Shown here in pieces: positions 2,527 to 49,542 of a DNA stretch of 64,000 bases. Made by a program: the position numbers and the translations under genes. The first letter of the stretch is position 1; every line of letters starts with the position of its first letter. The notes beneath the pieces were generated by a model. It did no database searches, had not been told where the DNA came from, and saw only the letters and a list, made by a program, of their open reading frames with translations. The stretch is from Patescibacteria group bacterium (GTDB lineage Bacteria; Patescibacteriota; Patescibacteriia; Patescibacteriales; Patescibacteriaceae). The stretch spans positions 8,037 through 72,036 of the forward strand of contig JAQWEL010000003.1 in NCBI GenBank assembly GCA_028704945.1. The letters are read 5' to 3'.

Positions 2527-3234
2527 TTAGAGAGAAACTTTCACGCCAGGACCCATAGCAGAAGTGATAGTACAGCTTTTGATATAAGTGCCTTTGGCAG
2601 CAGCCGGCTTGGCTTTTCTAACAGAGTCTAAGACAGCGCTGAAATTTTCAGCTAATTGTTGGCTCTCAAAAGAAGCTTTGCCAATCAAAATGTGGACATT
2701 GGCAGTATCATCATTCTTGAAAGAGATTTTACCTTTCTTCAATTCAGCCACAGCTTGAGCTGGATTAGCAGTCACAGTTTCATTTTTAGGTGATGGCATT
2801 AAGCCTCTGGTACCCAAAATTTTAGCAATCTTGGCTAAGTGACGCATAATGGCTGGTTCAGCAACTGCGACCTGAAAATCAGTTTTTTCAGTTTTTAAGA
2901 TTTCTTCAATCAATTCTTCTCCGCCAACGATGTCAGCTCCAGCTTCTTTACAAGCTTTTTCATTTTCTGGAGTGACAAAAGCGCAGATTTTTACTTTTTT
3001 ACCAGTACCATGAGGTAAAGTTAAAGCGGCGCGAATCTGTTGATCGCCCTTTCTTGGGTCGATACCGATATTGAAGTGGACTTCAATAGACGAGTCAAAT
3101 TTGACATTAGCTAATTTTTTGGTCAATTCAATGGCCTCAGTTAAAGGATAAGATTTGAGCTTGTCATAACCGACGGCAACGCGAGCCTCAGCTTTGGCAG
3201 TGGCGCGACGGCCTAATTTGATGGTTTTAGCCAT
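2527..3234 (-). CDS. rplA: 50S ribosomal protein L1 (uL1)
   Basis: 235 aa containing LTLPHGTGKKVKICAF and GTRGLMPSPK. It sits in the conserved secE-nusG-rplK-rplA order. Confidence 0.95.
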   Translation of the reverse strand: MAKTIKLGRRATAKAEARVAVGYDKLKSYPLTEAIELTKKLANVKFDSSIEVHFNIGIDPRKGDQQIRAALTLPHGTGKKVKICAFVTPENEKACKEAGADIVGGEELIEEILKTEKTDFQVAVAEPAIMRHLAKIAKILGTRGLMPSPKNETVTANPAQAVAELKKGKISFKNDDTANVHILIGKASFESQQLAENFSAVLDSVRKAKPAAAKGTYIKSCTITSAMGPGVKVSL

Positions 3235-3287
3235 ATTGTTTTGGTGGTGCGAGCGTTATTTTATAACTCCCACAAATTAATTATTAT

Positions 3288-3710
3288 TTACTTGATTTCA
3301 ACACCCATTTGACGAGCAGTGCCAGCAATAATTTTTTTGGCAGCTTCAACATCATAAGCGTTTAAGTCAGGCATTTTAACTTTGGCGATTTCTTCAAGTT
3401 GAGCCTCGGTGATTGAACCAACTTTGTTGGTCAAAGGAGTGGCTGAACCAGCTTTAATGCCAGCGTATTTTTTGATTAATTCAGAAGCAGGCGGTGTTTT
3501 TAAGATAAAAGTGTAGCTGCGGTCATTATAAACAGTGATTTCAACCGGAGTAACTTCACCCATCTTATCACGGGTAGCTTCATTGAATTTAGAACAGAAT
3601 TCGGCAATATTTAAACCGTGCTGTCCTAAAGCCGGACCGATTGGAGGAGCTGGATTAGCTTGGCCTCCGCGAATTTGTAATTTGATTTTGGTGACAATTT
3701 TTTTTGCCAT
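3288..3710 (-). CDS. rplK: 50S ribosomal protein L11 (uL11)
   Basis: 140 aa with [27 protein letters not shown], the classic uL11 N-terminus. Confidence 0.95.
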
Positions 3711-3783
3711 ATTATTTAAACCGCTGACGCAGAAGCTAGCTGAATTTTATCAGCAAGCGCCATACGGACTTTTAACAATTTGA

Positions 3784-4329
3784 TTAAATTTTCTTGATCT
3801 GTAAGAAGTCGAGCTCAACTGGAGTTTCGCGTCCGAACATAGAAATAACGACTTTAATCTTACCTTTTTCTTCATCAATCTCGATGACTTTTCCGTCAAG
3901 ATTTTTGAATGGGCCGTCAGTAATGCGGACAGGAGTATCTTCGGCTAAATCCATTTTGAATTTAGGCTCCTCAACACCCATTCTTTTTTGCAAAGACTTG
4001 ATTTCTTCTTCTGATATCGGAGTCGGGACAGTGCCGGTGCCGATAAAACCGGTTACGTTCGGGGTATTGCGAACAGCATACCAGGAATCATCATTAACAA
4101 CCATCTCTACTAAAACATAGCCTGGGAAGATTTTTTCTTCGACAATCTTGCGTTTGCCATTTTGAATCTTTATTTTTTTCTCCTTAGGAACCAAGACATT
4201 AAAAATTTTATCCTCCATGTCGAGCGATTCGATTCTTTGCCTTAAATTTTGGGCAACGTTTTCTTCATAACCAGAATAGGTGTGAAGCACGTACCAACGG
4301 CGGCCTTGATTCAATGTTTGTTTTGCCAT
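3784..4329 (-). CDS. nusG: transcription termination/antitermination factor NusG
   Basis: 181 aa with WYVLHTYSGYEENV (NGN domain) and a C-terminal KOW motif (VRITDGPFKNLDGKVIEID). Its position between secE and rplK fits. Confidence 0.95.
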   Translation of the reverse strand: MAKQTLNQGRRWYVLHTYSGYEENVAQNLRQRIESLDMEDKIFNVLVPKEKKIKIQNGKRKIVEEKIFPGYVLVEMVVNDDSWYAVRNTPNVTGFIGTGTVPTPISEEEIKSLQKRMGVEEPKFKMDLAEDTPVRITDGPFKNLDGKVIEIDEEKGKIKVVISMFGRETPVELDFLQIKKI

Positions 4330-4362
4330 ATGTCAATTTATTATATGGTTTTTAAAATAAGC

Positions 4363-4551
4363 TTATTGTCTGTTAATTAGATACTCAACACCTTTAGCGA
4401 ATACCCAGTCTAAGCCACCCAAAAAAGCAGCTACGCCGATACTGACAGCAATAACCAAAATAGTGTAATTTAAGGTTTCTTTCTTGGTTGGCCAAGTGAT
4501 TTTTTTAAGCTCATGAAAGGCCTCCTTGAAATAGTTAACTAATTTGTTCAT
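4363..4551 (-). CDS. secE: preprotein translocase subunit SecE
   Basis: 62 aa with ELKKITWPTKKETLNYTILVIAVSIGVAAFLG and a single TM helix, directly upstream of nusG. Confidence 0.85.
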   Translation of the reverse strand: MNKLVNYFKEAFHELKKITWPTKKETLNYTILVIAVSIGVAAFLGGLDWVFAKGVEYLINRQ

Positions 4552-4756
4552 ATTTTTTTATTCAAAAAAGAGCCCCTTTAGGGCCGAATTGAATTATGCC
4601 TATATCATATCAGCAGATTTATGGTTTGTCAAGGATTTGCCTTAGCTATAAGCAAAGTTCTCTTAATATTGACTTTTTTTTCTAAATATGTTGACATATA
4701 GTCAGTTTTTTGAAAAGTAAATAATTATGTAGTTTTCAATATATTAGGAGTTTTTC

Positions 4757-5647
4757 GTGAAAAATCTGCTAAGCCTTAGAAATGCTATCATGTTTAGCAT
4801 TATTGTCCTACTGTCAATCATCTTAACGCTCGTTAATGATTTGGTTGACGTGAATTTTGCCAGCATTAGCCTGGGCAATAAAATCAGCTTCGTGGTTTTT
4901 AACATACTGGCGGGAGGGTTTATATACAGGCTACTTATTTGGTGCAGTAAAGAGATGGCTAAAAAAGGAATAAAGAAAGTAAAAAGATTTTTTATTTTTT
5001 TATCTTTTTCTTTATGCCTTGTTTTTGTTGTTGCTATTTTTGAAATTGCCCGGTTTTTTGTTGATTTGTTCTTTGGCATTCCGCCAGTATTTTCGGTTGA
5101 TATTGATATATTTACTAATATTTGTTTTAGAATTTTTTATCTTATGTTTGGTATAATTCTTTTTAGTCAGAAGCTAGTAAGAAAAATAGGAGCTGAACGA
5201 TTATTAACCAAATATACGGTAAAAGTTGATTACAACCTGTCTATTGAAGAAGCTGTTAAAGCCGGTAAGTATGATTGTGTTGCTACTATGAAAGACGACG
5301 AGGTTAGTTCAAGTAATTTTCCTGCTTTACCGGGAGAAGAAGGCCAAAAAAATCTTAAGTTCGTCTTAGTACATTTTGGCCTTGTTATGAACTCGGATAA
5401 CGTCATTGTCGAAATGGATAAATTGGGTTACCGACCAGCTACCATGAGAGAAGGTTTAGCCTTTGGCGTTGAACATTCGGATCTGCAAAGACAATTCCCG
5501 ATTGTTGCCTTAGGACAATGGGCCGATCTTGGCGGTATTCGCCATGTGCTTTTTCTGATTGGAAACAATTCTGGTCGTATTCTTGTCCTTTTTCGTCTTG
5601 ACAGCAATTGGTTTGAATTTTGTCGATTCTTGTTTGTTCGCAAGTAA
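4757..5647 (+). CDS. membrane protein with a conserved cytoplasmic C-terminal module (function unknown)
   Basis: GTG start preceded by AGGAG. About 4 TM helices are followed by LGYRPATMREGLAFGVEHSDLQRQFPIVALGQWADLGGIRHVLFLIGNNSGRILVLFRLDSNWFEFCRFLFVRK. Confidence 0.6.
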   Translation: MKNLLSLRNAIMFSIIVLLSIILTLVNDLVDVNFASISLGNKISFVVFNILAGGFIYRLLIWCSKEMAKKGIKKVKRFFIFLSFSLCLVFVVAIFEIARFFVDLFFGIPPVFSVDIDIFTNICFRIFYLMFGIILFSQKLVRKIGAERLLTKYTVKVDYNLSIEEAVKAGKYDCVATMKDDEVSSSNFPALPGEEGQKNLKFVLVHFGLVMNSDNVIVEMDKLGYRPATMREGLAFGVEHSDLQRQFPIVALGQWADLGGIRHVLFLIGNNSGRILVLFRLDSNWFEFCRFLFVRK

Positions 5648-6234: not shown

Positions 6235-8976
6235 ATGGATAATAAGTCTAAAGCTAATTTAGCGATTTGTTCAGCCTGTCAAGGTAACGGCAGAATAAAT
6301 AATGCTATTTGTAATGACTGTCATGGCCTTGGTTCTGGTTTAGTTATCGGTGATAAATTTATATTTTTTTCTTTGCCAGTATCGATGGCTTCAATTTATT
6401 TGCGACGGCTCAGGCAAACCGTTTTTTATATCATGGATATAATTATTTGGTTGTTTGGTCTTTTGGGCACGATTATTTTTCTTTATTTAGTGGCGTTAAC
6501 TTTTTTAAATGGATTTTTACCGGACATTAGAAGACAGATTAGCGATAGTTGGTTTCAAATTATTTCAAGCTTGGCTTGGTTAGCGTTGATAATCGATTTA
6601 TTTGTTTTATATCGCTATCGCCGTAAGGTTGAAAATAAACTAAAGTTTAAGAAAAGTGATTATCTTCCGTTTTTGGATTGGGGTAAGCCGATGGCTTGGT
6701 CAGAGGCGTGGCAAGGGAGAAAAAAAATTAATGCCGCACTGTATTTATCGGATGATTTGCTATCATCGTTGGAAAAAGCTTATTTAAAATCCTTTGCTTG
6801 GGATCAGGGGGCTGTTTTACCTGTTCATTTGTTTGCTGCAATTTTAAGTGAAAGTCAAACTGCTGGAAAATGGCTCAAACGTTTGCAATTGAACGGCGAT
6901 CAATTATTCGAGAAATTGATGCGTCAGATTAAAAAGCAAAATAATCAAGGCGCTAATGATTTTTCCGCTGGTATCAAGGTGTCGATAGCAATCGGCTATG
7001 CCTTAGCTTTAGTGGAAGAACGGGAAGGGATTGAAGTGATGGATATTATTTTGCCATTAGTCAAGAACGATAAATTACTGGCCGAAGTCTTATATGATTC
7101 TGGTGTTGACGATGAAAAAATAGAAAATTTAAGCGAATGGTATTCTATTAATGAGAGAATGAAAAAAAATAGGCGTTTATTCAGTCATTTAGCCAGATTC
7201 AAGCCAAGCGGTAATATGGATCGGGCTTACACTGCCCAAGCTACGCCCATCTTGGATTCTGTATCCTATGATTTGACCGCCCAAGCTAAATATAACCGTC
7301 TTGAAATTTGTGTTGAGCGCGAGCGTGAAATTAATGAGATGATGTCGGTTATGCTTAGCGGACAATTAGGTATTTTGTTGGTTGGTCAGCCAGGCGCTGG
7401 CAAGAGGACTGTTGTCGGCGGCTTAGCCCAATTGATGGTAATGGAAAAAGTCCCTGGAGCTTTTCGCGATAAGCGTTTAATAGAAATTGATATCGCCCGA
7501 TTGATTGGCGGAGTTAATCCAGCTGAAGCTGAAGAGCGGATGTTGGAAATTATCAATGAAATAGCGCGGGCCGGCAATATCATCGCTTATATACCTAATA
7601 TAGAAACTATTTTGGGCTTATCAGCCGGCGGGGAATCAAGTCTTGATTTGTCGGAAATAGTCGTTAATGCTTTGCAGCGGGGTTGGTTTTATTGTTTAGC
7701 AACCACCACTTTAGAAAATTATCAGAAATTTGTTGAAGGCTCAACCTTGGGCAAGAGCTTGAATCGTATTGATATTGATGAACCTGAAACTAATAGCGCC
7801 ATCAAGATATTAGAATCAAAAGTTGCTTTTTTTGAAGCGCGTTATGGTGTTTATCTGTCTTATGGCGCGCTTGAGCAGGCGGTAGTGTTAACCAAACGTT
7901 TTGATCATGAAGCTTATCTGCCTGACAAGGCAATTAAAATAATTGATAAAGTTGCTGCTAAAACTTTAGGCGAAAGAGGCTCTAAGGCGATTGTAAGCAG
8001 CGATGATGTAGCCAATTTGATCAGTTCAGAAATAGGCGTGCCAGTAGCTAAATTTACTGAATCAGAAGGCAAAGAACTATTAGCGCTTGAAGAAAAGATG
8101 CACGAAAGGATGGTTGGCCAAGATGAGGCAGTCAGCATGGTGGCCGCTGCTCTCAGACGAGCTCGCGCTGAATTGCGTGAAGGTAAACGGCCAATCGCTT
8201 CTTTTTTATTTCTTGGCCCAACTGGTGTTGGAAAAACAGAATTAGCTAAAACATTAGCTTCGGTTTATTTTGGCGCTGAAAATACCATGATTAGATTGGA
8301 TATGTCTGAATATCAATCCGAAGATGCTTTGGAAAAAATGATTGGTTCAGCTGACGGTTCACCTGGCTATTTAACTGAAAAAGTCCGAGAAATGCCTTTC
8401 GCTTTAGTCTTGCTTGATGAAATTGAAAAAGCTCACCCGAAAGTTTTGGATTTATTTTTGCAAGTAATGGATGATGGCCGTTTGACCGATGGTGACGGAC
8501 GAACCATAGATTTTACTAACTCAATTATTATCGCCACTTCTAATGTCGGCGCAGTTGACATTATGAAAGCAGTTGAGCGAGGTGATGATTTATCAGGTCT
8601 TAAAGAAAAATTAGTTGAAAATGATTTGACTAAAGTTATGCGTCCTGAATTTATTAACCGGTTTGATGGCATTATCGTCTTTAAACCGTTAACGATAGAA
8701 AATGTTGCCCAAATTGCCGGCTTAATGATTGATTCTTTAGCTAAAATGCTAGACCAAAAGGGTATTAAGCTTGAAATTAGCGAACAAGGTTTGATAAAAT
8801 TGGCTAAAATGGGCTACGAGCCGCAATTTGGCGCTAGACCATTGAGGCGTCTCTTGCAGGATAAAATTGAAAATGTTATAGCTAATACCATCTTGGCCGG
8901 GGAGGTAAAAAGGCGTGATACGATTGTTATTAATGATGATGCCGAAGTTCAAGTTAAAAAAGCCCAGGCTTTATAA
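6235..8976 (+). CDS. membrane-anchored Clp/Hsp100-family AAA+ ATPase with an N-terminal DnaJ-type zinc finger
   Basis: 913 aa. The N-terminus has CSACQGNG...CNDCHGLG (two CxxCxGxG motifs) and 2 TM helices. Clp_N-like repeats follow, then D1 (GQPGAGKRT Walker A; the Walker B position reads IAYIPNIE rather than hhhhDE). D2 looks intact ([26 protein letters not shown]). Confidence 0.85.
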   Translation: MDNKSKANLAICSACQGNGRINNAICNDCHGLGSGLVIGDKFIFFSLPVSMASIYLRRLRQTVFYIMDIIIWLFGLLGTIIFLYLVALTFLNGFLPDIRRQISDSWFQIISSLAWLALIIDLFVLYRYRRKVENKLKFKKSDYLPFLDWGKPMAWSEAWQGRKKINAALYLSDDLLSSLEKAYLKSFAWDQGAVLPVHLFAAILSESQTAGKWLKRLQLNGDQLFEKLMRQIKKQNNQGANDFSAGIKVSIAIGYALALVEEREGIEVMDIILPLVKNDKLLAEVLYDSGVDDEKIENLSEWYSINERMKKNRRLFSHLARFKPSGNMDRAYTAQATPILDSVSYDLTAQAKYNRLEICVEREREINEMMSVMLSGQLGILLVGQPGAGKRTVVGGLAQLMVMEKVPGAFRDKRLIEIDIARLIGGVNPAEAEERMLEIINEIARAGNIIAYIPNIETILGLSAGGESSLDLSEIVVNALQRGWFYCLATTTLENYQKFVEGSTLGKSLNRIDIDEPETNSAIKILESKVAFFEARYGVYLSYGALEQAVVLTKRFDHEAYLPDKAIKIIDKVAAKTLGERGSKAIVSSDDVANLISSEIGVPVAKFTESEGKELLALEEKMHERMVGQDEAVSMVAAALRRARAELREGKRPIASFLFLGPTGVGKTELAKTLASVYFGAENTMIRLDMSEYQSEDALEKMIGSADGSPGYLTEKVREMPFALVLLDEIEKAHPKVLDLFLQVMDDGRLTDGDGRTIDFTNSIIIATSNVGAVDIMKAVERGDDLSGLKEKLVENDLTKVMRPEFINRFDGIIVFKPLTIENVAQIAGLMIDSLAKMLDQKGIKLEISEQGLIKLAKMGYEPQFGARPLRRLLQDKIENVIANTILAGEVKRRDTIVINDDAEVQVKKAQAL

Positions 8977-18276: not shown

Positions 18277-19422
18277 ATGCGTAGTGTTGAAAATCATTGG
18301 TTTAAAAAAATTTTTTTATTTATCAGAAATATAGAAGGAGCCGACCGCTGGCTTCTTTTTTCCCTGGCTGGTTTGATTGTTTTTGGTTTAATCGCTTTGT
18401 CGAGCGCTTCGTCAGTTATAGCCTTTCAAAATACCGGCGATAGTTTTTTTTATATTAAAAAGCAATTAATCGGAATTTTAATCGGTTTTGTTTTTTTTGC
18501 CATAGCGATTGCTATGAATTGGCGCCAATATAAAAAATATGGCTGGCTGTTATTTTTATTTAATATTATTCTGTTGATAGTAGTCTTGATTTTTGGATAT
18601 TCGGCCGGTGGATCACGAGCTTGGATTAGATTAGGTGGCTTTAATATTCAACCGTCAGAATTTCTAAAGTTAACCTTACTGCTATATTTAGCAGCTCGCT
18701 TATCTCGTCCTGAAAAAGAAGTTAGCCATAAGATAATCCCGTTTTTGATAGTTTACGGCTTGGCGGCGTTATTGATAATGCTGCAGCCAGATATTGGAAC
18801 ATTATTCATAATTTCAGTACCGGCGCTTGTTTCTTTATTTGTGGCTAAGGCTCCGTTGAAACATATTTTTTTTCTGATTGGTATCGGTGTGGTCCTTCTT
18901 TCATCTATTTTTTTGATTAGCAAATTTACTGGACGACTTGATCATGCTCAGGGCAGATTTGAGTGTATTATCGGCAATAATATAGAAACTAATAAACAAG
19001 GGACATGCTATCAGGTCAGCCAATCCTTGTCTGCTATCGGTTCTGGTAAAGTTATCGGCCGGGGCTTAGGCGAAAGCCGCAAGAAATTCCGCTATATTCC
19101 TGAAGTTCAGAATGATTTTATTTTTTCAGTTATTGCCGAAGAAACAGGTTTTATTTTTAGTTCGTTATTAATCATACTTTACGCTTTTATCTTTTGGCGA
19201 TCATATCTAATCGCTGCCCATTCCAACGAACCATTCGTTAAGATATTATCAATCAGTATCGGCAGCTGGTTTGTTGCTCAGGCGATTATTAATATCGGAG
19301 GAGCAACAGTTGTCTTGCCTTTGACTGGAGTACCATTGCCGTTTGTTAGCTATGGCGGTTCGGCTATGATTAGTTCATTGGCGGCCGCTGGCGTTTTAGT
19401 TGGTTTAAGTAAAAATGAATAA
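18277..19422 (+). CDS. ftsW: SEDS-family peptidoglycan polymerase FtsW/RodA
   Basis: 381 aa polytopic protein with IQPSEFLKL, PDIGT, EEGF-like (AEETGFIF) and LPFVSYGGSA motifs, positioned between mraY and murG. Confidence 0.9.
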   Translation: MRSVENHWFKKIFLFIRNIEGADRWLLFSLAGLIVFGLIALSSASSVIAFQNTGDSFFYIKKQLIGILIGFVFFAIAIAMNWRQYKKYGWLLFLFNIILLIVVLIFGYSAGGSRAWIRLGGFNIQPSEFLKLTLLLYLAARLSRPEKEVSHKIIPFLIVYGLAALLIMLQPDIGTLFIISVPALVSLFVAKAPLKHIFFLIGIGVVLLSSIFLISKFTGRLDHAQGRFECIIGNNIETNKQGTCYQVSQSLSAIGSGKVIGRGLGESRKKFRYIPEVQNDFIFSVIAEETGFIFSSLLIILYAFIFWRSYLIAAHSNEPFVKILSISIGSWFVAQAIINIGGATVVLPLTGVPLPFVSYGGSAMISSLAAAGVLVGLSKNE

Positions 19423-20494
19423 TATGAAAAAAATAATATTAACCGGTGGCGGAACCTTAGGCTCGGTTATACCATTGTTAGCAATTTCTGATAAACTCAG
19501 GGATGAATTTGAATTTATTTGGATTGGCACTAAACATGGTCCGGAAAAAGAAATTATTGAGACGGCTGGGTTACCGTTTGTAGCAATTTCTGCCGGCAAA
19601 ATAAGACGCTACTGGGATTGGAAAAATTTTCGAGATATATTCTTGTCTATAGCCGGTTTTTTCAAATCATTTTTACTATTGCAAAAAAATCGTCCCAATT
19701 TAGTTATTACCGCCGGTAGTTACGCCGGAGTGCCTGTTGTAATTGCGGCTAAATTTTTGGGCATTAAGGTTTTAGTCCATCAGCTTGATTATTTGCCTGG
19801 GTTAGCCAATAAAATTGGAGCTAAATTTGCCGATAAGGTGGCAGTGACTTGGGAAAAGTCGCTTAAAGATTTTGGCTCTAAAGCCATTTGGACCGGTTCC
19901 ATGATTAGATTTGAACTATATAGCCGAACCTTAAAGGAAGATAATAAGCAAATTGCTAATAAATTTGGTTTGAATGGTTTAAAGCCAATAATGTTGGTTG
20001 TCGGAGGCGGGACAGGCGCCAACGGACTCAATAATCTGGTAGCCGGTTCAATTAATTATTTAAAGGATGATTGTGAAATTTTGCACCTAACCGGCAAGGG
20101 TAAAAAATTATCGTTTGCCAAAGAACCAAACAATTATCAACAAATTGAATTTCTAAATCAGCCAGACATGGCTAAGGCTTATGCTATCGCTGATGTGGTG
20201 GTAAGCCGGGCAGGGATGTCGGCTATATTAGAATTAGCCGCCTTAAAGAAACCAGCCATCATTATCCCGATGCCTAACTCTCATCAAGAATTAAATGCTA
20301 GAATTTTAAGAGATTCAAATGCAGCCTTAGTGATGTTTCAAGATAAGATAAGTCCGGAAATGTTATCGGAAAAAATAAAAAAAATACTCTCCGATAAAGA
20401 GTATCAAGAGAGTTTAAAAGAAAACATCGGGCAAGTTGTAAAAATCAATAGCCAGGAATTAGTTAAGCTTGTTAAATTAATGGCCAACATTTGA
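19415..20494 (+). CDS. murG: UDP-GlcNAc:lipid I GlcNAc transferase
   Basis: ILTGGGTLGSVIPLLAI, VVGGGTGANGLN and SRAGMSAILELAALKKPAIIIP. Confidence 0.9.
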   Translation: MNNMKKIILTGGGTLGSVIPLLAISDKLRDEFEFIWIGTKHGPEKEIIETAGLPFVAISAGKIRRYWDWKNFRDIFLSIAGFFKSFLLLQKNRPNLVITAGSYAGVPVVIAAKFLGIKVLVHQLDYLPGLANKIGAKFADKVAVTWEKSLKDFGSKAIWTGSMIRFELYSRTLKEDNKQIANKFGLNGLKPIMLVVGGGTGANGLNNLVAGSINYLKDDCEILHLTGKGKKLSFAKEPNNYQQIEFLNQPDMAKAYAIADVVVSRAGMSAILELAALKKPAIIIPMPNSHQELNARILRDSNAALVMFQDKISPEMLSEKIKKILSDKEYQESLKENIGQVVKINSQELVKLVKLMANI

Positions 20495-20876
20495 TGTGGC
20501 CGATAATATCAATAAAAATAGCTATAATGGAAATAATCAGAACTATTAAATATTGCCATTTGCTAGTTTTGCTGGTAAGTTTATGAAGCAGGTGCGATAT
20601 TATTTCTTTATCTTGTCTGGAAAAATAATCGCTTTTTTCCACTTTACGGATTAGATTACTGGCATTAATATTGGATAATCTTTTCTTTTCAGAGAAATAT
20701 TCGTAACCATAATAAAGAATAAAGCCGATAGTGCCAATATACCAAATAATATCAGCTGTTGAAAAGAAATAATGGCTATTAGTTATAATAATGGCTCTAT
20801 AGCACAAGCTGGAAATGACAAATATCCAAAATATTATTTGTTTAGTGGTATGATGAGAAATTTTGATTTGGCTCAT
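20472..20876 (-). CDS. membrane protein (hypothetical)
   Basis: 134 aa with 3-4 hydrophobic helices. It is convergent with murG and overlaps its last 23 nt. Confidence 0.45.
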   Translation of the reverse strand: MSQIKISHHTTKQIIFWIFVISSLCYRAIIITNSHYFFSTADIIWYIGTIGFILYYGYEYFSEKKRLSNINASNLIRKVEKSDYFSRQDKEIISHLLHKLTSKTSKWQYLIVLIISIIAIFIDIIGHIKCWPLI

Positions 20877-20934
20877 ATTATTTCATTGTAATAATTAAAA
20901 TTATTATAACATAGATTATCAAAAAATTAAAAAT

Positions 20935-22329
20935 ATGGATTGGTCTAAAGTAAAAAGTGTTTATATGATAGGCATCAAGGGTGTCGGCATGACTATGTTG
21001 GCAGAATTTTTAGCTGCTCAAGGCATTAAAGTTGAGGGATCTGACGGACCAGAACATTATTTTACTGAGAAAGTCTTAACTAAAGCGAAAATTAAATTTT
21101 ACGAGCAGTTTAGTGAAAGCAATCTTCCGTCTGATGTTGATTTAATAATTTACTCGACCGCCTATAACGAAAGCAATCCTGAAGTAAAAGCGGCTATCAA
21201 TAGTAACAAAAAAGTTTTTACTTACGCTGAAGCTTTAGCTAAAGTTTTTAATTATCGACAAGGCATTGCTGTTTGTGGTTCACATGGCAAGACAACCACT
21301 ACGGCTTGGCTTGGTTTTGTGATGGATAAATTAAAGATGAAGCCTAATGTTATGGTTGGTTCGATCGTGCCGCAATTCGGTGGAGCCAGTTTATCAAATT
21401 CATCGGATTGGTTAGTTATTGAAGCTGATGAATATCAGAATAAATTAAAGCAGTTTGAACCGAAAGCAATTCTTTTGAATAACATTGATTATGATCATCC
21501 AGATTTTTACAAAACAGAGAAAGATTATTTTCAAGCTTTTGCTGATTTTGTAATAAAATTAACGGCTAAAGGTTGGTTGGTGGCTAATTTTGACGATGCT
21601 AACGTTCGTGAAGTGGCTAAATTAACTAAGGCTAAGGTTATCAGCTATGCCATTGAAAGCGAAGCCGACTTAATGGCCAGTGATTTAGCAATTCAAGGCG
21701 GCCGACAGTATTTTAAAGCAAAATATAATGGCGAAGATTTGGGTTCTTTCAATATTAGTTTATTAGGCAAGCACAACGTTTATAATGCTCTGGCAGTAAT
21801 TGCGTCTGTCTTGGAAATAGGAGCTGACTTATTGGGTTTAAGAAATGCTTTAGCTGAATTTAATGGCACAGTGAGACGAATGGAGTATAAAGGAGAATAT
21901 AAGGGCGCTAGAATTTATGATGACTATGCGCATCATCCCACTGAAGTCAAAGCTTCTATCCAAGCAGCCTTGGAAATCAAATCAGGCGCTCCTTTGTATG
22001 TCGTATTTCATCCTCATACCTTTACCAGAACCAAAGCTTTGCTTGATGATTTTGCTAAAAGTTTTACCGGGGTAGAAAAATTATGCGTGATTGAAATTTA
22101 CGGCTCAGCCAGAGAAATACAAGGCGGTGTATCCAGTAATGATTTGGTTGAAAAGATTAAAATTAATAATCCTAAAATTATAGCTGACTATGTCCCGGAT
22201 TTGCCGGCAGCGGCTAATTGGCTGAATCACGAAATTCAAGGCGGAGAAACAGTCGTCTTAATGGGGGCAGGCGATGTTAATCGTTTAGCAACAGAATTTT
22301 TATCATTAGAATATGAAAATAATCAATAA
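20935..22329 (+). CDS. murC: UDP-N-acetylmuramate--L-alanine ligase
   Basis: GIKGVGMTMLAEFL, CGSHGKTTTTAWL, EADEYQ and DDYAHHPTE. Confidence 0.95.
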   Translation: MDWSKVKSVYMIGIKGVGMTMLAEFLAAQGIKVEGSDGPEHYFTEKVLTKAKIKFYEQFSESNLPSDVDLIIYSTAYNESNPEVKAAINSNKKVFTYAEALAKVFNYRQGIAVCGSHGKTTTTAWLGFVMDKLKMKPNVMVGSIVPQFGGASLSNSSDWLVIEADEYQNKLKQFEPKAILLNNIDYDHPDFYKTEKDYFQAFADFVIKLTAKGWLVANFDDANVREVAKLTKAKVISYAIESEADLMASDLAIQGGRQYFKAKYNGEDLGSFNISLLGKHNVYNALAVIASVLEIGADLLGLRNALAEFNGTVRRMEYKGEYKGARIYDDYAHHPTEVKASIQAALEIKSGAPLYVVFHPHTFTRTKALLDDFAKSFTGVEKLCVIEIYGSAREIQGGVSSNDLVEKIKINNPKIIADYVPDLPAAANWLNHEIQGGETVVLMGAGDVNRLATEFLSLEYENNQ

Positions 22330-23236
22330 CAAAAGTTTAAAAGATTTGACAACTTTTAAAATCGGCGGTGAAGCGGAATTTTTTACCGAAATTTACCTAA
22401 AGGAAGAATTAATTGAAGCGTTAGCTTGGGCCAAGAGTAAAAACTTACCAGTTTTTATATTGGGTGGAGGCAGTAACCTATTGATAAGCGAACAAGGTTT
22501 GAGGGGTTTAACGATAAAGATGATAAATAATGAAATTGAATTAAAGGGCAATAATATTATTGCCGGAGCTGGCTTAGCTTTAGCAGATCTAATCGGCTTT
22601 GCTTTTAAAAATAATTTAACTGGTTTGGAATGGGGGACAGGCATTCCTGGTTCTGTGGGCGGAGCAGTCCGCGGTAATGCCGGCGCTTACGGCGGAGAGA
22701 TAAGCAGACTGGTTGAAGAAGTGGAGGCTTATGATATTTTGAAAAATAAATGGCTTACAATTTCTAAAAATGATTGTTTGTTTTCTTACAGGGAAAGTCA
22801 TTTTAAAAAAGATAAAAATTTAATTATTTGGCAAGTAAAATTTACTTTAGCTAAAGATGAACACGAAAATATTAAAACCAAGCTACATGATATCGTTAAT
22901 CAACGGATGCCTAAATTGCCGACTGAATCAAGCGCCGGGTCATTTTTTAAGAATATTGAATTAGATAAATTACCCATTGAAATTAAAAATGTTTTGCTTG
23001 AAAGATTTGCCGACAAAATTAAGGGGAATAAATTAGCTGCCGGGGTAATTATTGAAGCGCTGGGTTTAAAAGGTTTAAAGAATAATCAAGCTATGGTTAG
23101 CCCCAGGCATGCTAATTTTTTAATCAATCTCGGTGATGCCAAGCAGGCTGATATTTTAGAACTAATTCATAAAATTCAGTCTGAAGCTGAGAAAAAGTAT
23201 GGCATAATATTAGAGCCAGAAGTAAATATTTTATAA
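22313..23236 (+). CDS. murB: UDP-N-acetylenolpyruvoylglucosamine reductase
   Basis: TTFKIGGEAEFF, ILGGGSNLL, GIPGSVGGAVRGNAGAYG and SAGSFFKN. It overlaps murC by 17 nt. Confidence 0.9.
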   Translation: MKIINNKSLKDLTTFKIGGEAEFFTEIYLKEELIEALAWAKSKNLPVFILGGGSNLLISEQGLRGLTIKMINNEIELKGNNIIAGAGLALADLIGFAFKNNLTGLEWGTGIPGSVGGAVRGNAGAYGGEISRLVEEVEAYDILKNKWLTISKNDCLFSYRESHFKKDKNLIIWQVKFTLAKDEHENIKTKLHDIVNQRMPKLPTESSAGSFFKNIELDKLPIEIKNVLLERFADKIKGNKLAAGVIIEALGLKGLKNNQAMVSPRHANFLINLGDAKQADILELIHKIQSEAEKKYGIILEPEVNIL

Positions 23237-23507
23237 AAAATAGCCCGTGAAACAAATTGTTTGTTCGCGGGTGATTTTTTAATGTCTTCCATAAATAATA
23301 GGGAAAATGATACCTAGAATAACAGAAAAAAGTACAATACGTGTGTGCACATTACCAATGACTATTGACAAGTTATTAAAAGTATGCTTTTATTTAAAAA
23401 TAATAAAGAACCTTGAAAAACAATGAAGGTTAGTAATAAATCGCAAATTAAGTATCTTAGTTTTCGGCTTATTACTAATTTTTATTCAAAATATATTGGA
23501 GTTTATT

Positions 23508-24047
23508 ATGAGCGCATCTATCAATAACCCAGAATTTGTTTCGGTAAAATTAACGACTGAACAAATAAATTCCATAGTTGAAAAACTTGGTGGTTATGAA
23601 AAAACTCTCGCGTTTTTGCAGGAAGAACCTCAAACAACAACCATCAATCATATCATTGATTGTAACGCCAATCCGTATATTCCAATGGGTTTGACTGTGG
23701 TGGAACATAAGCCAGGCGGATTATTTGAGTTTGACCCGTCAAAAATTTACCTGTATCTGTCTGAAGCGCAAAAAAGTGGCGTTATCAACGGAAATAATTT
23801 AAGAAAATTGTTAGCTGACAAGCCGGTCTTAAACGCTAACGTTCTTGATTATTTACTGGCTCATCCGGAAATTATTCCCGAAGATTGGAAAGGTAAATAT
23901 ATCTTTTTCTGGGGAACGCTTTACCGCTACTCGAATGGCAATCTTTTTGTTCGTTACCTCTACTGGAACGGTTCGAAGTGGAGCTGGAGCTACGGCTGGC
24001 TTGGTGACGAGTTCGATGTCGATTGCCCTGCTGTTCTCGCAAGTTGA
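23508..24047 (+). CDS. DGR target protein (small, no signal peptide) with a C-terminal variable region
   Basis: GGAG RBS 7 nt before the ATG at 23508. The 179-aa protein ends ...IFFWGTLYRYSNGNLFVRYLYWNGSKWSWSYGWLGDEFDVDCPAVLAS, and its last 40 codons form the VR. Confidence 0.85.
   Translation: MSASINNPEFVSVKLTTEQINSIVEKLGGYEKTLAFLQEEPQTTTINHIIDCNANPYIPMGLTVVEHKPGGLFEFDPSKIYLYLSEAQKSGVINGNNLRKLLADKPVLNANVLDYLLAHPEIIPEDWKGKYIFFWGTLYRYSNGNLFVRYLYWNGSKWSWSYGWLGDEFDVDCPAVLAS
23924..24042 (+). repeat. DGR variable region (VR)
   Basis: It aligns gap-free over 119 nt with 24371-24489. The 9 differences are T,T,T,G,G,G,G,G,G opposite template A. Confidence 0.85.
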
Positions 24048-24087
24048 TTTTTGTAACTTAGATCTTTGCTCTTTGGCTTTTACCCTT

Positions 24088-24120
24088 AGATCTTGAAATG
24101 TATAGTACATTCCAAGATCT
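24088..24120 (+). terminator. 15-bp hairpin downstream of the VR (terminator and/or DGR homing-associated structure)
   Basis: AGATCTTGAAATGTA-tag-TACATTCCAAGATCT has one mismatch and is followed by ATTTTTT. The motif CTTAGATCT is also repeated at 24057-24065 and 24085-24093. Confidence 0.55.
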
Positions 24121-24370
24121 ATTTTTTACACAAAATTATGTTAAGATAAAATTGATTAAGGTTAATTTGTGGTTGGTTATGGCTGACCACGACCATAATT
24201 AATATTTTTGTTTTGAGGATATTTACGGCTAAGGCTGAAAATAGAGTGAAATAAAAATATTTTACACAATGAAGAAACTTGGTTTGTGGCGCTAAGGCAT
24301 TATGATGCCGGATAAAATACAGCCCCGAGATTATTCAAGGAGCAGTGACTTAGGTGGCGCTGCAAACATT

Positions 24371-24489
24371 CCGCAACTCGAATGGCAATCTTTATGTTCG
24401 TTACCTCAACTGGAACGGTTCGAAGTGGAACTGGAACTACAACTGGCTTGATAACGAGTTCGATGTCGATTGCCCTGCTGTTCTCGCAA
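24371..24489 (+). repeat. DGR template region (TR)
   Basis: A non-coding copy of the VR that retains the AAC/AAT codons (FRNSNGNLYVRYLNWNGSKWNWNYNWLDNEFDVDCPAVLA). Homology stops abruptly at ...CTCGCAA. Confidence 0.85.
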
Positions 24490-24510
24490 CTCTCTTTATT
24501 TCTCCCTCGC

Positions 24511-24870
24511 TTATTTGGTGGGGGAGTTTTGTTTTGTTAATTGGCCGTTCCAGCCACCCAGCATGCGACCGATTTCATTTATTTTTTCCGATAAGATAAT
24601 ATATTTTTTATTATCCAAGGATTTAGTTTCCCAAAGAATCAAGAGAAAGACTTTAACAGTGTCATTTTTTCTAATGGCTATTTTTATATAGGACTGCTTT
24701 TCTTCTTTAGATAAGAACGAGGCGCTGACGATAGCTTCTATAATTTCCACCAGCAAAACGTCAATCCTGCCACCTAAAGTATAGCGATGCTCTTTGGGCA
24801 GTGTTTTGTAGTAACCATACCATAGAAAATATAGATCTTTGATTTTCTGTAATAAGGGTATTAGTTGCAA
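24511..24870 (-). CDS. four-helix-bundle protein (Avd-like DGR accessory / 23S-IVS protein family)
   Basis: 119 aa, basic, helical, with a TTG start. YTLGGRIDVLLVEIIEAIVSA...INEIGRMLGGW is typical of four-helix-bundle proteins of the Avd type. It lies between TR and RT but on the opposite strand. Confidence 0.7.
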   Translation of the reverse strand: MQLIPLLQKIKDLYFLWYGYYKTLPKEHRYTLGGRIDVLLVEIIEAIVSASFLSKEEKQSYIKIAIRKNDTVKVFLLILWETKSLDNKKYIILSEKINEIGRMLGGWNGQLTKQNSPTK

Positions 24871-24899
24871 ATTCGGCTGGGGGGGGTAACATTAGAAGC

Positions 24900-25417
24900 A
24901 TGAAAATTTTGGATCATAAATTTGAGGAAATTATTAGTTTAGAAAATTTTTGGAAAATATTATTGAAAGTTTTAGAGACAAAGTAACTGATAATGGACTG
25001 CCTTTGGGCAATTTAACTTCGCAACTATTCTCTAATATTTATCTTAATGAATTTGATCATTTTGTTAAGCAAAAGTTTAAAATAAAATACTATATCAGAT
25101 ATGCCGATGATTTTGTAATCTTTAATTCTGATAGAGATTATTTGGTTAAGTTAATCCCATTGCTAAGTAATTTTTTAATACAAAAATTAAAATTAACCCT
25201 GCATCCGCAAAAATTGTTTATTAAAACTTTGGTTTCCGGCATAGATTTTTTAGGTTAGACGCATTTTCCCGAGCATCGTGTTTTGCGGCGAGCGACCAAA
25301 AGAAGAATGTTTAGAAAAATCAGCCTTACTTCTAGCGAAGCGACGGTTAATTCATATTGGGGATTATTGAAAAATGGAAATAGCTACAAATTAAGAAAGC
25401 AACTAAATTTGATTTAA
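24900..25417 (+). pseudogene. DGR-type reverse transcriptase, degraded (internal deletion/frameshift plus in-frame TAG)
   Basis: Three fragments were read. (1) 24900-24986, MKILDHKFEEIISLENFWKILLKVLETK*. (2) 24950-25258 in another frame, ENIIESFRDKVTDNGLPLGNLTSQLFSNIYLNEFD...YYIRYADDFVIF...GIDFLG, carrying the LPxGxxxSQ and YADD motifs. (3) After TAG at 25259-25261 the same frame continues THFPEHRVLRRATKRRMFRKI...SYWGLLKNGNSYKLRKQLNLI*. Confidence 0.8.
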
Positions 25418-25510
25418 TTGATTAATTCTGGTCGCTTCTTATGCTGTTATTCTGTGCTTTTTATAAATAGGCTGATATCAGCATAGGTTCTGTAAATTAA
25501 ATTTTTGATA

Positions 25511-25539
25511 TTGACAATTATGTAAATATGTGATACAAT
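25511..25539 (+). promoter_or_regulatory. near-consensus sigma70 promoter for 25611..27500
   Basis: TTGACA 25511-25516, a 17-nt spacer ending in TGA (TGn extended -10), then TACAAT 25534-25539. An AGGAG RBS precedes the ATG. Confidence 0.55.
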
Positions 25540-25610
25540 ATTATATTGTTCATTCAAAATTGAATATTCCCTAATATTAAATAATTTTCTTAATTATCAG
25601 GAGTTTTATC

Positions 25611-27500
25611 ATGAGACGATTTACTGTAATCTTCGCCATATTAACCATGCTTTTGGTTAGTATTAATAGTGTTAATGGCCAATCCGCGTCCAATTTCTTG
25701 TTCTCTTTGGACAAGCCGGCCGACTGGAATTCGATGGCTAACCAGATTCAACTTGATCTGGAAGCCCAGTTAACCCAAACTGTCAGTGAATTTTCTTCAA
25801 CCGTATCCATTGTCTTAACCGGTGATGGGCAGTTGGAAAAATTCATTAATCCGCGTTTCCCGGCTGATAATGATTATGAATTAAACGATGCTTCTAAATG
25901 GAGTTTTGTTGATTCGGTGTTTATGTCGAACGCAAAAGATAGCGCTGTTTATCGCTTTAAAGCTACTGCTGAAAATCAAGATAATCCCGATGTTTTTTTT
26001 AAAGCAGCTGACAAAAAGGTGCTTTGGGAAAACTTTGTCAGATTATCTGTTATGCCGACTAACGGCAAATTGATTTTTGCTTTTTCTGATATAAAAGTCA
26101 GGACAAGTAAGAATGCTTCACCGATTGCGCTTGCTAATATGGCTTATGAGATTAATTTTGGAACAATCGGCTACTTTGATACGGTTGATATCGATATGAA
26201 ATTCGATTCTTCATGTTTCTATAACAACCCTGATTGGAAAACCGCACGAGTTATGCTTCTTTTGGGCGGAGCCGGCACCACCAGTATGGAATATGTCGTT
26301 AATACGCCAAGTAATATCAACTTGACTTACAACGAAGAAGCCTTTCTGGTTTTGCTTGATAGCGCTAACGGAAGAAAACGTTGGCAACTAACTTCGGTCC
26401 TCCCGACTTTTAACGCTTACGGTTACGGCTTGATGGGCGGTATAGACTTTACGATTGATACGGCTAATAAAACTGGCGATACGATTTTTTTGGAAAGCTT
26501 GAAAGCGGTCAGATTCAACGGCAATCCGTTTGAGAAAAAATTAACTTCAAGCTTGGCAATTAAATATCCAGCCAAAAAAATATGGGAAGACAGCTTGGAC
26601 ATCAGACTATATGATCAAGGTTTTGATACGACAGATATCCGCCAGAATAAGTCTGCCAAATTATTTGTCGGATTAACCTCGACTCGAGCAGTGGCAACAG
26701 CTGATAGCGTCAAATTTTTCTTAAGGTTTGACAAACATTATTTCAGGCTTAACTCGACATCCCGGCCGGATAATTTTTATCCCAACTTTGAAGTTGAAAA
26801 GATTTCGGAAGATGATTTATCAGTTACTTATGCTATCAGCCTTAGACACGGCGGCTTGATATCAAATGAATGGCACGACGTCGGTTTAATTGATTTCGAT
26901 GTGATTGATATTCCTAATTTCGAGACAATAATCGAACTTTCCGAGCTTGAAGTTTGGCGTAATAATCAAGAATTCGGTTTTAAGAGCATTAAATCATTCG
27001 GTTTTGACGGTAAAAAAGAAGCCTACGACAAAAATTATTTTTTAAAAGGCGATGTCAATCAGCAGTTCGGCGACAATGACCTTACTTATGCCGATCTCGA
27101 TTCTTTGGATAGTTATCTGTCTCGAGGAATATTAGATGCCACCGCTTATATTCGTTGGGCGCTTGATATGAACATTGACGGCATCGTTAATTGGTTAGAT
27201 CGAAATATGCTTGATAGTCTTCTTAAATTGAAATATACAAGCGTTAATGAAATCTCGGCTCAGACTGTACTCGTCTATCCTATGCCGGCTTATCAAACCG
27301 TTAATCTACAATTACCCCAAGACTTGATAATCAATGAAATAAAAATTGTTGATTTATCAGGCAACCTAGTAAAAGTAATTTGGCAACAGGATAATGGAAA
27401 CATTATTCTTGATCTGCAAGATTGCCCAGCCGGCGTTTACAACTTACAAATCAGGGATATTCAAAACAGACTCATACAAGGCAAATTTATCAAGAATTAA
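25611..27500 (+). CDS. secreted protein with dockerin-like repeats and a T9SS-type C-terminal sorting-domain-like tail
   Basis: Signal peptide MRRFTVIFAILTMLLVSINSVNGQ. Ca-binding dockerin-like GDVNQQFGDNDLTYADLDSL and LDMNIDGIVNWLDRNMLDSLL. The C-terminus VLVYPMPAYQTVNLQL...IKIVDLSGNLV...CPAGVYNLQI...GKFIKN matches the T9SS CTD pattern. Confidence 0.75.
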   Translation: MRRFTVIFAILTMLLVSINSVNGQSASNFLFSLDKPADWNSMANQIQLDLEAQLTQTVSEFSSTVSIVLTGDGQLEKFINPRFPADNDYELNDASKWSFVDSVFMSNAKDSAVYRFKATAENQDNPDVFFKAADKKVLWENFVRLSVMPTNGKLIFAFSDIKVRTSKNASPIALANMAYEINFGTIGYFDTVDIDMKFDSSCFYNNPDWKTARVMLLLGGAGTTSMEYVVNTPSNINLTYNEEAFLVLLDSANGRKRWQLTSVLPTFNAYGYGLMGGIDFTIDTANKTGDTIFLESLKAVRFNGNPFEKKLTSSLAIKYPAKKIWEDSLDIRLYDQGFDTTDIRQNKSAKLFVGLTSTRAVATADSVKFFLRFDKHYFRLNSTSRPDNFYPNFEVEKISEDDLSVTYAISLRHGGLISNEWHDVGLIDFDVIDIPNFETIIELSELEVWRNNQEFGFKSIKSFGFDGKKEAYDKNYFLKGDVNQQFGDNDLTYADLDSLDSYLSRGILDATAYIRWALDMNIDGIVNWLDRNMLDSLLKLKYTSVNEISAQTVLVYPMPAYQTVNLQLPQDLIINEIKIVDLSGNLVKVIWQQDNGNIILDLQDCPAGVYNLQIRDIQNRLIQGKFIKN

Positions 27501-27590
27501 TTTTCTAATAACTTTACCAAAGCGGACTATTTTTAAAGGTAGCCCGCTTTTTTATATTAAATTTTGTTATTTTTAAAATATAGGTAAAGC

Positions 27591-27619
27591 TTGACAAAAT
27601 GGTCTTTTGTCTATATATT
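27591..27619 (+). promoter_or_regulatory. sigma70-type promoter for 27699..28511
   Basis: TTGACA 27591-27596, a 17-nt spacer, then TATATT 27614-27619. Confidence 0.45.
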
Positions 27620-27698
27620 ATAATTTCTTAGTGTTCTTTTAAAATTAGCCAATACATAACACAACGTTATCATTTTTAAACTAATCATAGGGGTTTTC

Positions 27699-28511
27699 AT
27701 GAAAAAGTTCTTTGTCTTGTTGGTATTTTTTAGCTTTATGGCTTCTTTTGCCTTAGCTCAAGATTTAACGCTTGAGTTTAAGCAAGGTTATCCCATGAGT
27801 CCAGATACTAAAAAATATCCAGAATTCAGGATTGATATTTTTGGCGCAGGCTCTAAAAAAATAAATAATTTAGAGTTTAACGTCGAATATTCATCCGTCA
27901 ACACGCTTGATTTTGAATTCTACGCTTCGGGCACTCGCTATAAAGATAATAGTGACGCTAAAGATAAGTGGTGGACTAATAATCCTCCGCCGTTTTCGGA
28001 AAAAGCAACTACTAAACATAAAGCGTATGTAAATTTCCGAGTTGGCTTAGGCGATCCGGTTGATGTCTCGACCCGTTTTAAATTTCTGGAATTATATTTT
28101 CATTTTAACAAAGATACATACTATAAGTATGGTGATGTTATTGTGATTAAGATTAATGGTATCAAAGTAAAATTCGGTGATGGCTCTCAAGCTAATTTAC
28201 CCGATCAAGAAGTCAGATTAGTCTTTGATGTTATTAATGATGTCGTTGAATTATCTGATTTAGGCATTAAGCCTTTTGCCAGTGTTGTTTCCGACTACAT
28301 TGCAACCGATATCAAGCTAATTGATTTTTCGGAACTCGATATATTCATCTGTGATTTACTTGGTAATATTGTTTGTCGGCAGAAAGAAATTTGTTATACT
28401 GGAAATAATCCGATAAAAATTGATTTAAGCAATTTAACTGTCGGCCATTATTTAATCCAATTTAAGCTTGGACAAAAGATTGCTAATACCAAATTTATTA
28501 TCCGCCGATAA
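27699..28511 (+). CDS. secreted protein with a T9SS-type C-terminal sorting-domain-like tail
   Basis: Signal peptide MKKFFVLLVFFSFMASFALAQ. The C-terminus reads ...LDIFICDLLGNIVCRQK...IKIDLSNLTVGHYLIQFKLGQKIANTKFIIRR. Confidence 0.7.
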   Translation: MKKFFVLLVFFSFMASFALAQDLTLEFKQGYPMSPDTKKYPEFRIDIFGAGSKKINNLEFNVEYSSVNTLDFEFYASGTRYKDNSDAKDKWWTNNPPPFSEKATTKHKAYVNFRVGLGDPVDVSTRFKFLELYFHFNKDTYYKYGDVIVIKINGIKVKFGDGSQANLPDQEVRLVFDVINDVVELSDLGIKPFASVVSDYIATDIKLIDFSELDIFICDLLGNIVCRQKEICYTGNNPIKIDLSNLTVGHYLIQFKLGQKIANTKFIIRR

Positions 28512-49429: not shown

Positions 49430-49542
49430 TAGTTGCTGAACATAATAATCTTTGATATTGACATTTAGCTTAAAATATGATTTTATATTAGCATAAATTT
49501 AGTACATTACTAATTCATTTTATCATCTTTCAGGAGTTTGTC

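Follow-up and report, generated by a model that had tools for sequence, protein, structure and literature searches.

We analysed a 64,000-nt stretch of DNA (hereafter the window; positions 8,037 to 72,036 of contig JAQWEL010000003.1, GenBank assembly GCA_028704945.1) from a Patescibacteria group bacterium, and found that it carries a genuine chromosomal diversity-generating retroelement (DGR) of a Patescibacteria (candidate phyla radiation, CPR) lineage. The cassette comprises a target gene that ends in a variable region (VR), a gene for an RNA that carries the template region (TR), an avd gene and a reverse transcriptase (RT) pseudogene, in the order target (+), TR RNA gene (+), avd (-) and RT (+). 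The features of the locus are the following.

23508..24047, plus strand: target gene, 179 aa (open reading frame and translation); no Pfam family and no hydrophobic N-terminus, member of a large Patescibacteria protein family
23924..24042, plus strand: VR, the last 40 codons of the target gene; 119-nt ungapped match to the TR with 9 mismatches, all at TR adenines
24088..24127, plus strand: hairpin (15-bp stem upon folding) and T-run, with a GC-rich hairpin and T-run at the same place in relatives; probable terminator of the target transcript
24125..24152, plus strand: promoter-like site for the TR RNA (consensus scan, TTTACA-16-TAAAAT, 10/12 matches)
24156..24368, plus strand: structured 5' domain of the DGR RNA, 213 nt (RNAalifold covariation, nhmmer, fold z)
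Helices of the 5' domain: P1, 24160-24194; P2, 24207-24214/24248-24255; P3, 24220-24243; P4, 24282-24293/24356-24367; P5, 24296-24309; P6, 24318-24347
24267..24281, plus strand: primer-like strand (CAAUGAAGAAACUUG), which pairs with 24487-24501 and runs gaplessly into P4 (24282-24293)
24371..24489, plus strand: TR, ungapped match to the VR
24487..24501, plus strand: last 3 nt of the TR and its 3' flank (CAACUCUCUUUAUUU), which pair back to 24267-24281
24502..24536, plus strand: hairpin just 3' of the TR followed by UUUUGUUUUG (terminator scan: 10 pairs, tail TTTTGTTTTG); overlaps the final avd codons
24511..24870, minus strand: avd, 119 aa, apparently intact (Pfam bAvd, NCBIfam DivGenRetAVD, PHROG), on the strand opposite to the TR and RT
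24900..24986, plus strand: N-terminal scrap of the RT (MKILDHKFEEIISLENF...), about RT residues 1-17, then out of frame to a stop
24944..25417, plus strand: C-terminal half of the RT, in another frame than the N-terminal scrap, corresponding, over 24944-25405, to residues 180-332 of an intact 342-aa relative (tblastn, translations)

The VR and TR form the sole long high-identity repeat in the window (repeat family D1). They differ at TR positions 24375, 24394, 24408, 24430, 24436, 24441, 24442, 24451 and 24453, where the TR has A throughout and the VR has T, T, T, G, G, G, G, G and G, respectively. Substitutions affect 9 of the 29 TR adenines and none of the 90 non-adenine positions, and a hypergeometric calculation gives a probability of 1.0e-6 for nine random mismatches all falling on TR adenines. 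At the protein level, the substitutions read N>Y, Y>F, N>Y, N>S, N>S, N>G, D>G and N>D, each arising at codon position 1 or 2. Of 28 TR adenines assigned to codon positions, 27 likewise occupy position 1 or 2, and the mutable part of the TR contains seven AAC and two AAT codons. The final 36 nt are identical in both copies and include six unsubstituted adenines, resembling the invariant segment at the initiation of mutagenic homing site (IMH) and its TR counterpart (IMH*). Identity between IMH and IMH* is a case also reported by Wu et al. 2018 (PMC5758913). With 23 TR adenines located upstream of this segment, ~3e13 protein variants are possible. The nine A-to-T/G differences are the record of at least one past retrohoming event.

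A preliminary description of this DNA, made from the letters and open reading frames alone, had already proposed a DGR here, and we reproduced the coordinates of its 119-nt VR/TR pair, the nine adenine-only mismatches, the codon changes and the identical 36-nt end. Beside the pair we also found avd, a DGR-type RT and a conserved RNA that carries the TR; these confirm the identity of the element. Similarity between the two copies stops at both ends, after CGCAA on the 3' side and just 5' of 23924/24371 on the other. While the VR/TR pair is genuine, the description had missed the wrecked RT located past 24489, from which motifs 1-3 have been deleted and which bears a frameshift and an in-frame TAG codon. 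Because the RT gene is destroyed, the VR/TR pair records past retrohoming rather than a working diversifier.

The C-terminal remnant of the RT retains LGNLTSQ and YADD. The motif [LIV]GxxxSQ (motif 4) together with YxDD is the signature of DGR-type RTs. The remnant is 53-55% identical to the full RTs of related cassettes (tblastn) and matches the PHROG reverse transcriptase at 7.8e-34, while Pfam RVT_1 aligns solely over profile positions 111-202 of 205. Intact RTs of related cassettes measure 318-342 aa, and the N-terminus of an intact relative (MKIRLTHKFEDIISLDNLLEAWQEF) can be compared with the scrap that remains here. Approximately 155 codons (roughly 465 nt; residues ~26-179, motifs 1-3) have been deleted, including the VLKCDIRKFF block that carries the first catalytic aspartate in relatives, and the junction is frameshifted. 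Furthermore, a TAG codon at 25256-25258 replaces the conserved Trp of DFLGW. NCBI annotates the remnant as a 102-aa protein (P0123). With a deletion, a frameshift and a nonsense codon, this RT is neither intact nor catalytically competent as judged by its sequence.

These lesions also occur in a second assembly. Two Logan contigs from run SRR22315502 were reached via neighbouring genes and not via the target protein. Contig SRR22315502_6131 is identical to window positions 24460-28258, RT lesions included, and contig SRR22315502_172780 is identical to positions 19313-24036, spanning the whole variable part of the VR, of which one haplotype was thus assembled. The exact target protein was absent from a contig index look-up, and a search of JGI metagenome contigs for alternative VRs of the same strain found none, the closest relative being 54-60% identical. 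Each Logan contig terminates within the exact 36-nt stretch shared by VR and TR, which is the usual behaviour of de Bruijn assemblies at repeats. This suggests that DGR loci systematically fragment short-read assemblies at the IMH-like segment, and such fragmentation can hide the linkage of a target gene to its TR and RT when contigs are short.

The target coding sequence is preceded by GGAG located 7 nt ahead of its ATG. Its product is identical to the hypothetical protein PHR00_02085 of the NCBI metagenome-assembled genome (MAG), encoded on a 153-kb contig. We found no meaningful match to this protein in Pfam, NCBIfam or PHROGs. It belongs to a family without a Pfam domain, with 526 homologues in the protein collection and relatives in 344 species-representative genomes, nearly all of which are Patescibacteria; the few titled as other phyla are probably binning errors. 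Several related loci (L005, L009, L010, L013, L016, L033, L061 and others) carry the record titles 'uncultured Gammaproteobacteria', 'Micavibrio' or 'Methylocapsa', and these contigs are probably mis-binned or mislabelled MAG contigs. Across the family alignment, the scaffold of the protein is conserved (e.g. NANVLDYLL and FFWGTxYR) and most of the variability falls where TR adenines act as template.

AlphaFold modelled the target with a pLDDT of 89.8 (~97 over residues 50-179), predicting two N-terminal helices and an alpha/beta core, in which the variable residues 141, 147, 152, 159, 161, 163, 166 and 167 lie on the last beta-strands and the following loop. The preliminary description had suggested examining the C-terminus for a C-type lectin fold. 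The model is confident, and seven of its top 10 Foldseek matches in the PDB are C-type lectin domains (BDCA2, MCL and EMS16), with TM scores of 0.33-0.46; none of these matches is significant, the best having E=0.72 and TM 0.33/0.44. Foldseek against BFVD gave no significant match, the sequence profile of the target family found nothing among PDB sequences, and neither fold nor sequence profile matched any solved DGR variable protein, Mtd, TvpA and AvpA included. A C-type lectin fold is therefore plausible for the predicted structure and unproven.

The preliminary description also stated that the 179-aa target has no signal peptide, in agreement with the lack of a hydrophobic N-terminus. Its suggestion that a small target devoid of a signal sets this DGR apart from the classic ones does not hold for CPR DGRs, for which such targets have already been reported as typical (Roux et al. 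2021). Targets of clade-2 CPR DGRs typically lack a recognisable transmembrane or other conserved domain, and whether they are truly non-membrane proteins was left open in that study (Roux et al. 2021, PMC8144416). Possible action of the target inside the cell is hence a question already posed in the literature and not a new one.

The Avd protein matched Pfam bAvd at 7.4e-13 (49.4 bits, above the gathering cutoff of 40), NCBIfam DivGenRetAVD at 6.9e-18 (under the cutoff of that model) and the PHROG 'Avd protein of DGR' at 2.4e-16, and it is 80% identical to the Avd of related locus L001. The layout target-TR-(avd)-RT, with avd reversed between TR and RT, was also found in L001, L002, L004 and ~30 further loci, and fits architecture B3, TR-(avd)-RT, of Wu et al. 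2018 (PMC5758913). An 81-aa open reading frame lying over the TR (24354-24599) was rejected as a gene, as it is the TR frame continuing into the avd antisense.

Within the ~320 nt that separate the target gene from the TR lies a structured RNA domain that is supported by covariation. RNAalifold applied to an alignment of 39 loci (alignment A3) yielded 82 base pairs, 55 of which show compensatory (double) changes. For the 80 pairs located outside the TR, 93.9% of the cells are paired compared to 39-49% when the partners were slid by 1-3 columns, and in 448 cells both sides are changed, as opposed to 61-111 upon sliding. None of the observed covariation measures was reached in 500 shuffles. The frequent G-U pairs indicate that the TR RNA is made from the plus strand, in the sense of the TR. 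Helix P4 is closed by the hairpins P5 and P6 and a conserved single-stranded stretch. All helices of the 5' domain are intact in the window, and folding the single sequence gave the same architecture (z=-3.9). Upstream of the domain, the extended -10 element TGnTAnAAT (TGTTAAGAT, 24139-24147) is conserved across the alignment.

An nhmmer profile of the 5' domain matched the window once (E=8.8e-43) and also detected the domain in metagenome loci outside the set from which the profile was built. A search of positions 23000-25700 against Rfam at E<=1 returned nothing related to DGRs, with two chance-level matches (bablM and mir-1473). The domain is absent from Rfam, and an earlier description of it or of the target family elsewhere is possible.

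The domain is held in register with both limits of the TR. The long-range helix between 24267-24281 and 24487-24501 contains 13 pairs, 12 of which form in the window, with 92.9% of the cells paired and eight pairs double-changed. The partner of the primer-like strand consists of the TR end CAA and the conserved 3' flank CUCUCUUUAUUU, and G24281 and G24282, at the junction of the primer-like strand with P4, are invariant in 39/39 loci. At the other limit, P4 ends 3 nt before the TR start at 24371. Across the alignment, VR/TR homology starts 4-5 columns past P4 in 35 of the 39 loci and ends at the paired CAA in 29 of them. The structure of the RNA and its register with the TR limits are well supported by these data.

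The stem of the hairpin located just 3' of the TR (24502-24526) also covaries (CUCCUC/GAGGAG, CUCUCC/GGAGAG, CUCCCU/AGGGAG). With its U-tract, this hairpin looks like a terminator, sited where BPP-1-type DGRs have their Avd-binding stem-loop. The final Avd codons (...TKQNSPTK and stop, 24511-24540, minus strand) are antisense to its 3' arm, loop and U-tract; the avd stop codon sits in the loop, and the 3' arm and U-tract are antisense to the conserved codons ...TKQNS. Across loci that differ widely in GC content, GGAGUUUUGUUUU is conserved even at wobble positions, which suggests a dual constraint from the Avd protein tail and from the RNA element.

On the VR side, most relatives (L001-L081 set) have a three-tiered hairpin with CUUnG-type internal loops within 62 nt of the target stop codon, placed before the terminator; this hairpin may be the counterpart of the BPP-1 post-IMH cruciform. 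MAFFT and RNAalifold gave no consensus structure for this post-VR region; folding each locus showed the hairpin in most relatives and not in the window, whose segment (24048-24087) has the weakest fold among the 39 loci (-4.8 kcal/mol, z=+0.7) and contains the direct repeat CTTAGATCTT in place of the hairpin. A hairpin or cruciform after the VR is needed for efficient homing in BPP-1 and Legionella, and only 34% of surveyed DGRs have one.

The arrangement of the RNA can be compared to the cryo-EM structure of the BPP-1 system (Handa et al., bioRxiv 10.1101/2023.10.23.563531). In BPP-1, nucleotides 47-56 of the spacer (Sp) pair with TR117-129 to form the template:primer duplex, priming occurs from A56 with the essential G57 adjacent, and a G is the first template base. 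Two nt further on, a second duplex, the 'cPRT stop' at which cDNA synthesis ends, is formed by Sp59-70 and the avd segment that immediately precedes the TR. The RNA described here likewise uses one continuous strand to make a duplex with the 3' end of the TR and then a duplex just upstream of the TR (with 0 nt between the two), so that the TR is looped out between both duplexes; a stem-loop lies just 3' of the TR, and a G is the first template base after the duplex. In contrast to the BPP-1 RNA, in which a 140-nt spacer follows the TR, the pairing strand and the 213-nt structured domain lie on the 5' side here, and the stop-like duplex is closed by a two-hairpin domain. Only ~47 nt follow the TR (a tail, one hairpin and the U-tract), and these overlap the 3' end of avd. 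With avd inverted, there is no space for a 3' spacer, in agreement with a circularly permuted RNA. A stem-loop just 3' of the TR was reported in 207 of 278 Avd-containing DGRs by Handa et al. (bioRxiv 10.1101/2023.10.23.563531), whose survey spanned 40 nt upstream and 100 nt downstream of the TR and would therefore have missed a 5' domain such as this one.

We tentatively propose that, in this Patescibacteria clade, the DGR RNA is circularly permuted and is a discrete transcript of ~380 nt with a 5' priming and protein-binding domain and with two duplexes that limit the copied sequence. The roles in priming, stopping and protein binding are assigned to the domain by analogy with BPP-1. In intact relatives, this RNA would be made from its own promoter-like site and would consist of the structured 5' domain, the 119-nt TR and the 3' tail with its hairpin and U-tract. 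A complex of RT and Avd would copy the TR into cDNA, misincorporating opposite adenines, and this cDNA would subsequently take the place of the final 40 codons of the 179-aa target gene. For this clade, the RT-Avd complex, cis-priming and retrohoming are all modelled on the Bordetella phage system.

Related loci differ in how much of the cassette they retain. The 62 loci with enough flanking sequence were classified as follows.

Complete cassette: 28 of 62 loci
TR present, RT broken or missing: 7 of 62 loci (the window, L004, L049, L031, L043, L046 and L055)
Target alone, with no TR, avd or RT within 4 kb: 27 of 62 loci

A total of 35 related loci independently show the adenine-only VR/TR pattern, each having 7-23 A mismatches and usually 0-1 non-A mismatches. 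Complete cassettes show 7-23 A mismatches, and 17 of the 28 have no non-A mismatch. Non-A mismatches are commoner in defective cassettes (mean 1.9 vs 0.7, one-sided Mann-Whitney p=0.04), as expected if homing normally resets the VR to the TR sequence. Relatives provide independent cases of decaying cassettes. L004 has a TAA codon inside the YADD of its RT (3871-4854), L001 contains a second leader-avd-RT module (2754-4475) whose RT carries a TAG codon, and L018 retains an avd/RT remnant without a TR (4451-4916). Leader sequences persist beside lone targets, partial in L020 (4496-4544) and L022 (4671-4805) and full-length in L071; partial leaders also occur in L082 (4638-4756) and L089 (3524-3597), which lie outside the 62-locus classification, beside targets without a nearby TR, avd or RT. 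Cassette decay is therefore recurrent in the family, and the window, with no non-A mismatch, looks like a recent loss.

Altogether, we consider the element to be most likely a recently frozen relic: its RT is dead, the cassette no longer diversifies by itself and the VR is most likely frozen. Having lost ~155 RT codons and gained a frameshift and a nonsense codon, the cassette is unable to diversify on its own. Apart from the RT, the cassette looks intact (TR RNA gene, avd and target gene), and the total conservation of the 90 non-A positions between VR and TR suggests that little time has elapsed since the last homing event. Several points weigh against this interpretation. The single VR haplotype was obtained from assemblies, which leave room for ongoing VR variation. 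Since both assemblies probably derive from the same reads, their agreement excludes an assembler artefact and does not exclude a minority of cells with an intact RT. The window represents 64 kb of a 153-kb contig in a multi-contig MAG, and an intact RT encoded elsewhere could act in trans. Finally, the lack of non-A mismatches together with an intact avd and TR RNA would also be expected of an element still in use.

The chief alternative is trans-complementation, in which the cassette remains active because an intact DGR RT located elsewhere in the genome uses the TR RNA and Avd. The intact TR RNA gene, avd and target reading frame and the lack of non-A differences between VR and TR are as this alternative would have them; some relatives hold two avd-RT modules per locus, such as L001 with its second copy of the leader, avd and RT, and remote targets and genomes with multiple DGRs have been documented (Wu et al. 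2018, PMC5758913). We nevertheless consider it unlikely. A tblastn search of the window with four DGR RTs found a single RT copy, the leader profile found a single leader, and no second target was found in these 64 kb. Among the best 120 of 2037 RT homologues, the only protein from the same MAG is the 102-aa P0123, which is weak evidence against a second RT. The VR is represented by one haplotype in two assemblies. Furthermore, given the intimate and specific fit between RNA and protein in BPP-1 (Handa et al.), a foreign RT would have to be a close paralogue.

Alternatively, the RT defects could be a consensus error of the assembly or a minority variant, the DGR being intact and autonomous in most cells. 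The window is indeed metagenome-assembled, and DGR repeats do break assemblies, as shown by the two Logan contigs that end in the 36-nt repeat. Yet the lesions are of two kinds, a ~465-nt deletion that comes with a frameshift and, apart from it, a nonsense point mutation; both recur base for base in the independent Logan assembly, no repeat was detected in the window at the deletion, and unrelated relatives bear comparable lesions (TAA within YADD in L004, TAG in the upstream copy of L001, remnants only in L018). This makes an artefactual or minority origin very improbable. As for the proposal that the VR and TR are an ordinary duplication or a gene-conversion tract produced without reverse transcription, it has nothing in its favour beyond the existence of the repeat, and it is effectively refuted by the restriction of 9/9 differences to the adenines of one copy (p ~1e-6), by the location of the non-coding copy within a conserved structured RNA beside avd and RT, and by the recurrence of the adenine asymmetry in 35 independent loci. 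A frozen relic remains our preferred interpretation.

In its overall organisation, the element resembles the DGRs of CPR bacteria (architecture B3, Wu et al. 2018, PMC5758913; clade 2, Roux et al. 2021, PMC8144416), with which it shares the host lineage, a single adjacent target, a reverse-strand avd between TR and RT, a small target in which no signal peptide, transmembrane segment or Pfam domain is recognised, and a VR that cannot be aligned with the classical C-type lectin VR classes. Several of the related loci come from groundwater CPR genomes used in those surveys (e.g. GW2011 and RIFCSP records). Unlike the catalogued CPR DGRs, which are putatively functional, this one has an RT pseudogene. 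With the BPP-1 DGR (mtd-avd-TR-brt), it has in common an adenine-specific TR-to-VR transfer, a VR at the 3' end of the target reading frame, TR adenines concentrated in AAC/AAT codons, an invariant 3' segment, and an Avd together with a group-II-intron-like RT bearing the xGxxxSQ motif. It differs from this phage-borne DGR by its chromosomal location, a target that is not a tail fibre, an inverted avd located downstream of the TR, an inactivated RT, IMH/IMH*-equivalent segments that are identical over 36 nt, and the lack of a convincing hairpin after the VR in the window. Its predicted target structure shares with the C-type lectin-fold DGR proteins (Mtd, TvpA, archaeal AvpA and TaqVP) a C-terminal VR on the beta-strands and loops of a compact alpha/beta domain, and it gave no significant fold match. 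The DGR itself is an ordinary addition to a well-documented CPR lineage, and the 5' RNA domain that brackets the TR is the most interesting result.

Downstream of the cassette, two secreted-looking proteins encoded at 25611-27500 and 27699-28511 contain a C-terminal Por_Secre_tail domain (E=1.8e-8 and 1.5e-6, respectively). This domain is a sorting domain of type IX secretion, best known from Bacteroidota and unexpected in Patescibacteria. A near-consensus promoter (TTGACA-17-TACAAT, with TG upstream) lies at 25500-25543, ahead of the gene at 25611, within a 44-nt sequence repeated with 77% identity ~24 kb away at 49447-49490. These 44-nt repeats may be a shared regulatory element.

Our analysis shows that a perfect adenine-only VR/TR signature is no proof of a working DGR. 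In this family, the RT has been lost in about one fifth of the TR-bearing cassettes and many targets stand alone; finders that rely on repeats only will over-call activity, while finders that start from the RT will miss such relics. The 5' RNA domain makes it possible to test, in a phylogenetically independent setting, the cis-priming and stop-duplex model that comes from one phage, and its profile can locate TRs directly in CPR genomes. The published question of intracellular action by CPR targets stays open with this family. Furthermore, the active, recently dead and long-dead cassettes of the family form a natural series in which the fate of a hypervariable protein after the end of diversification can be addressed.

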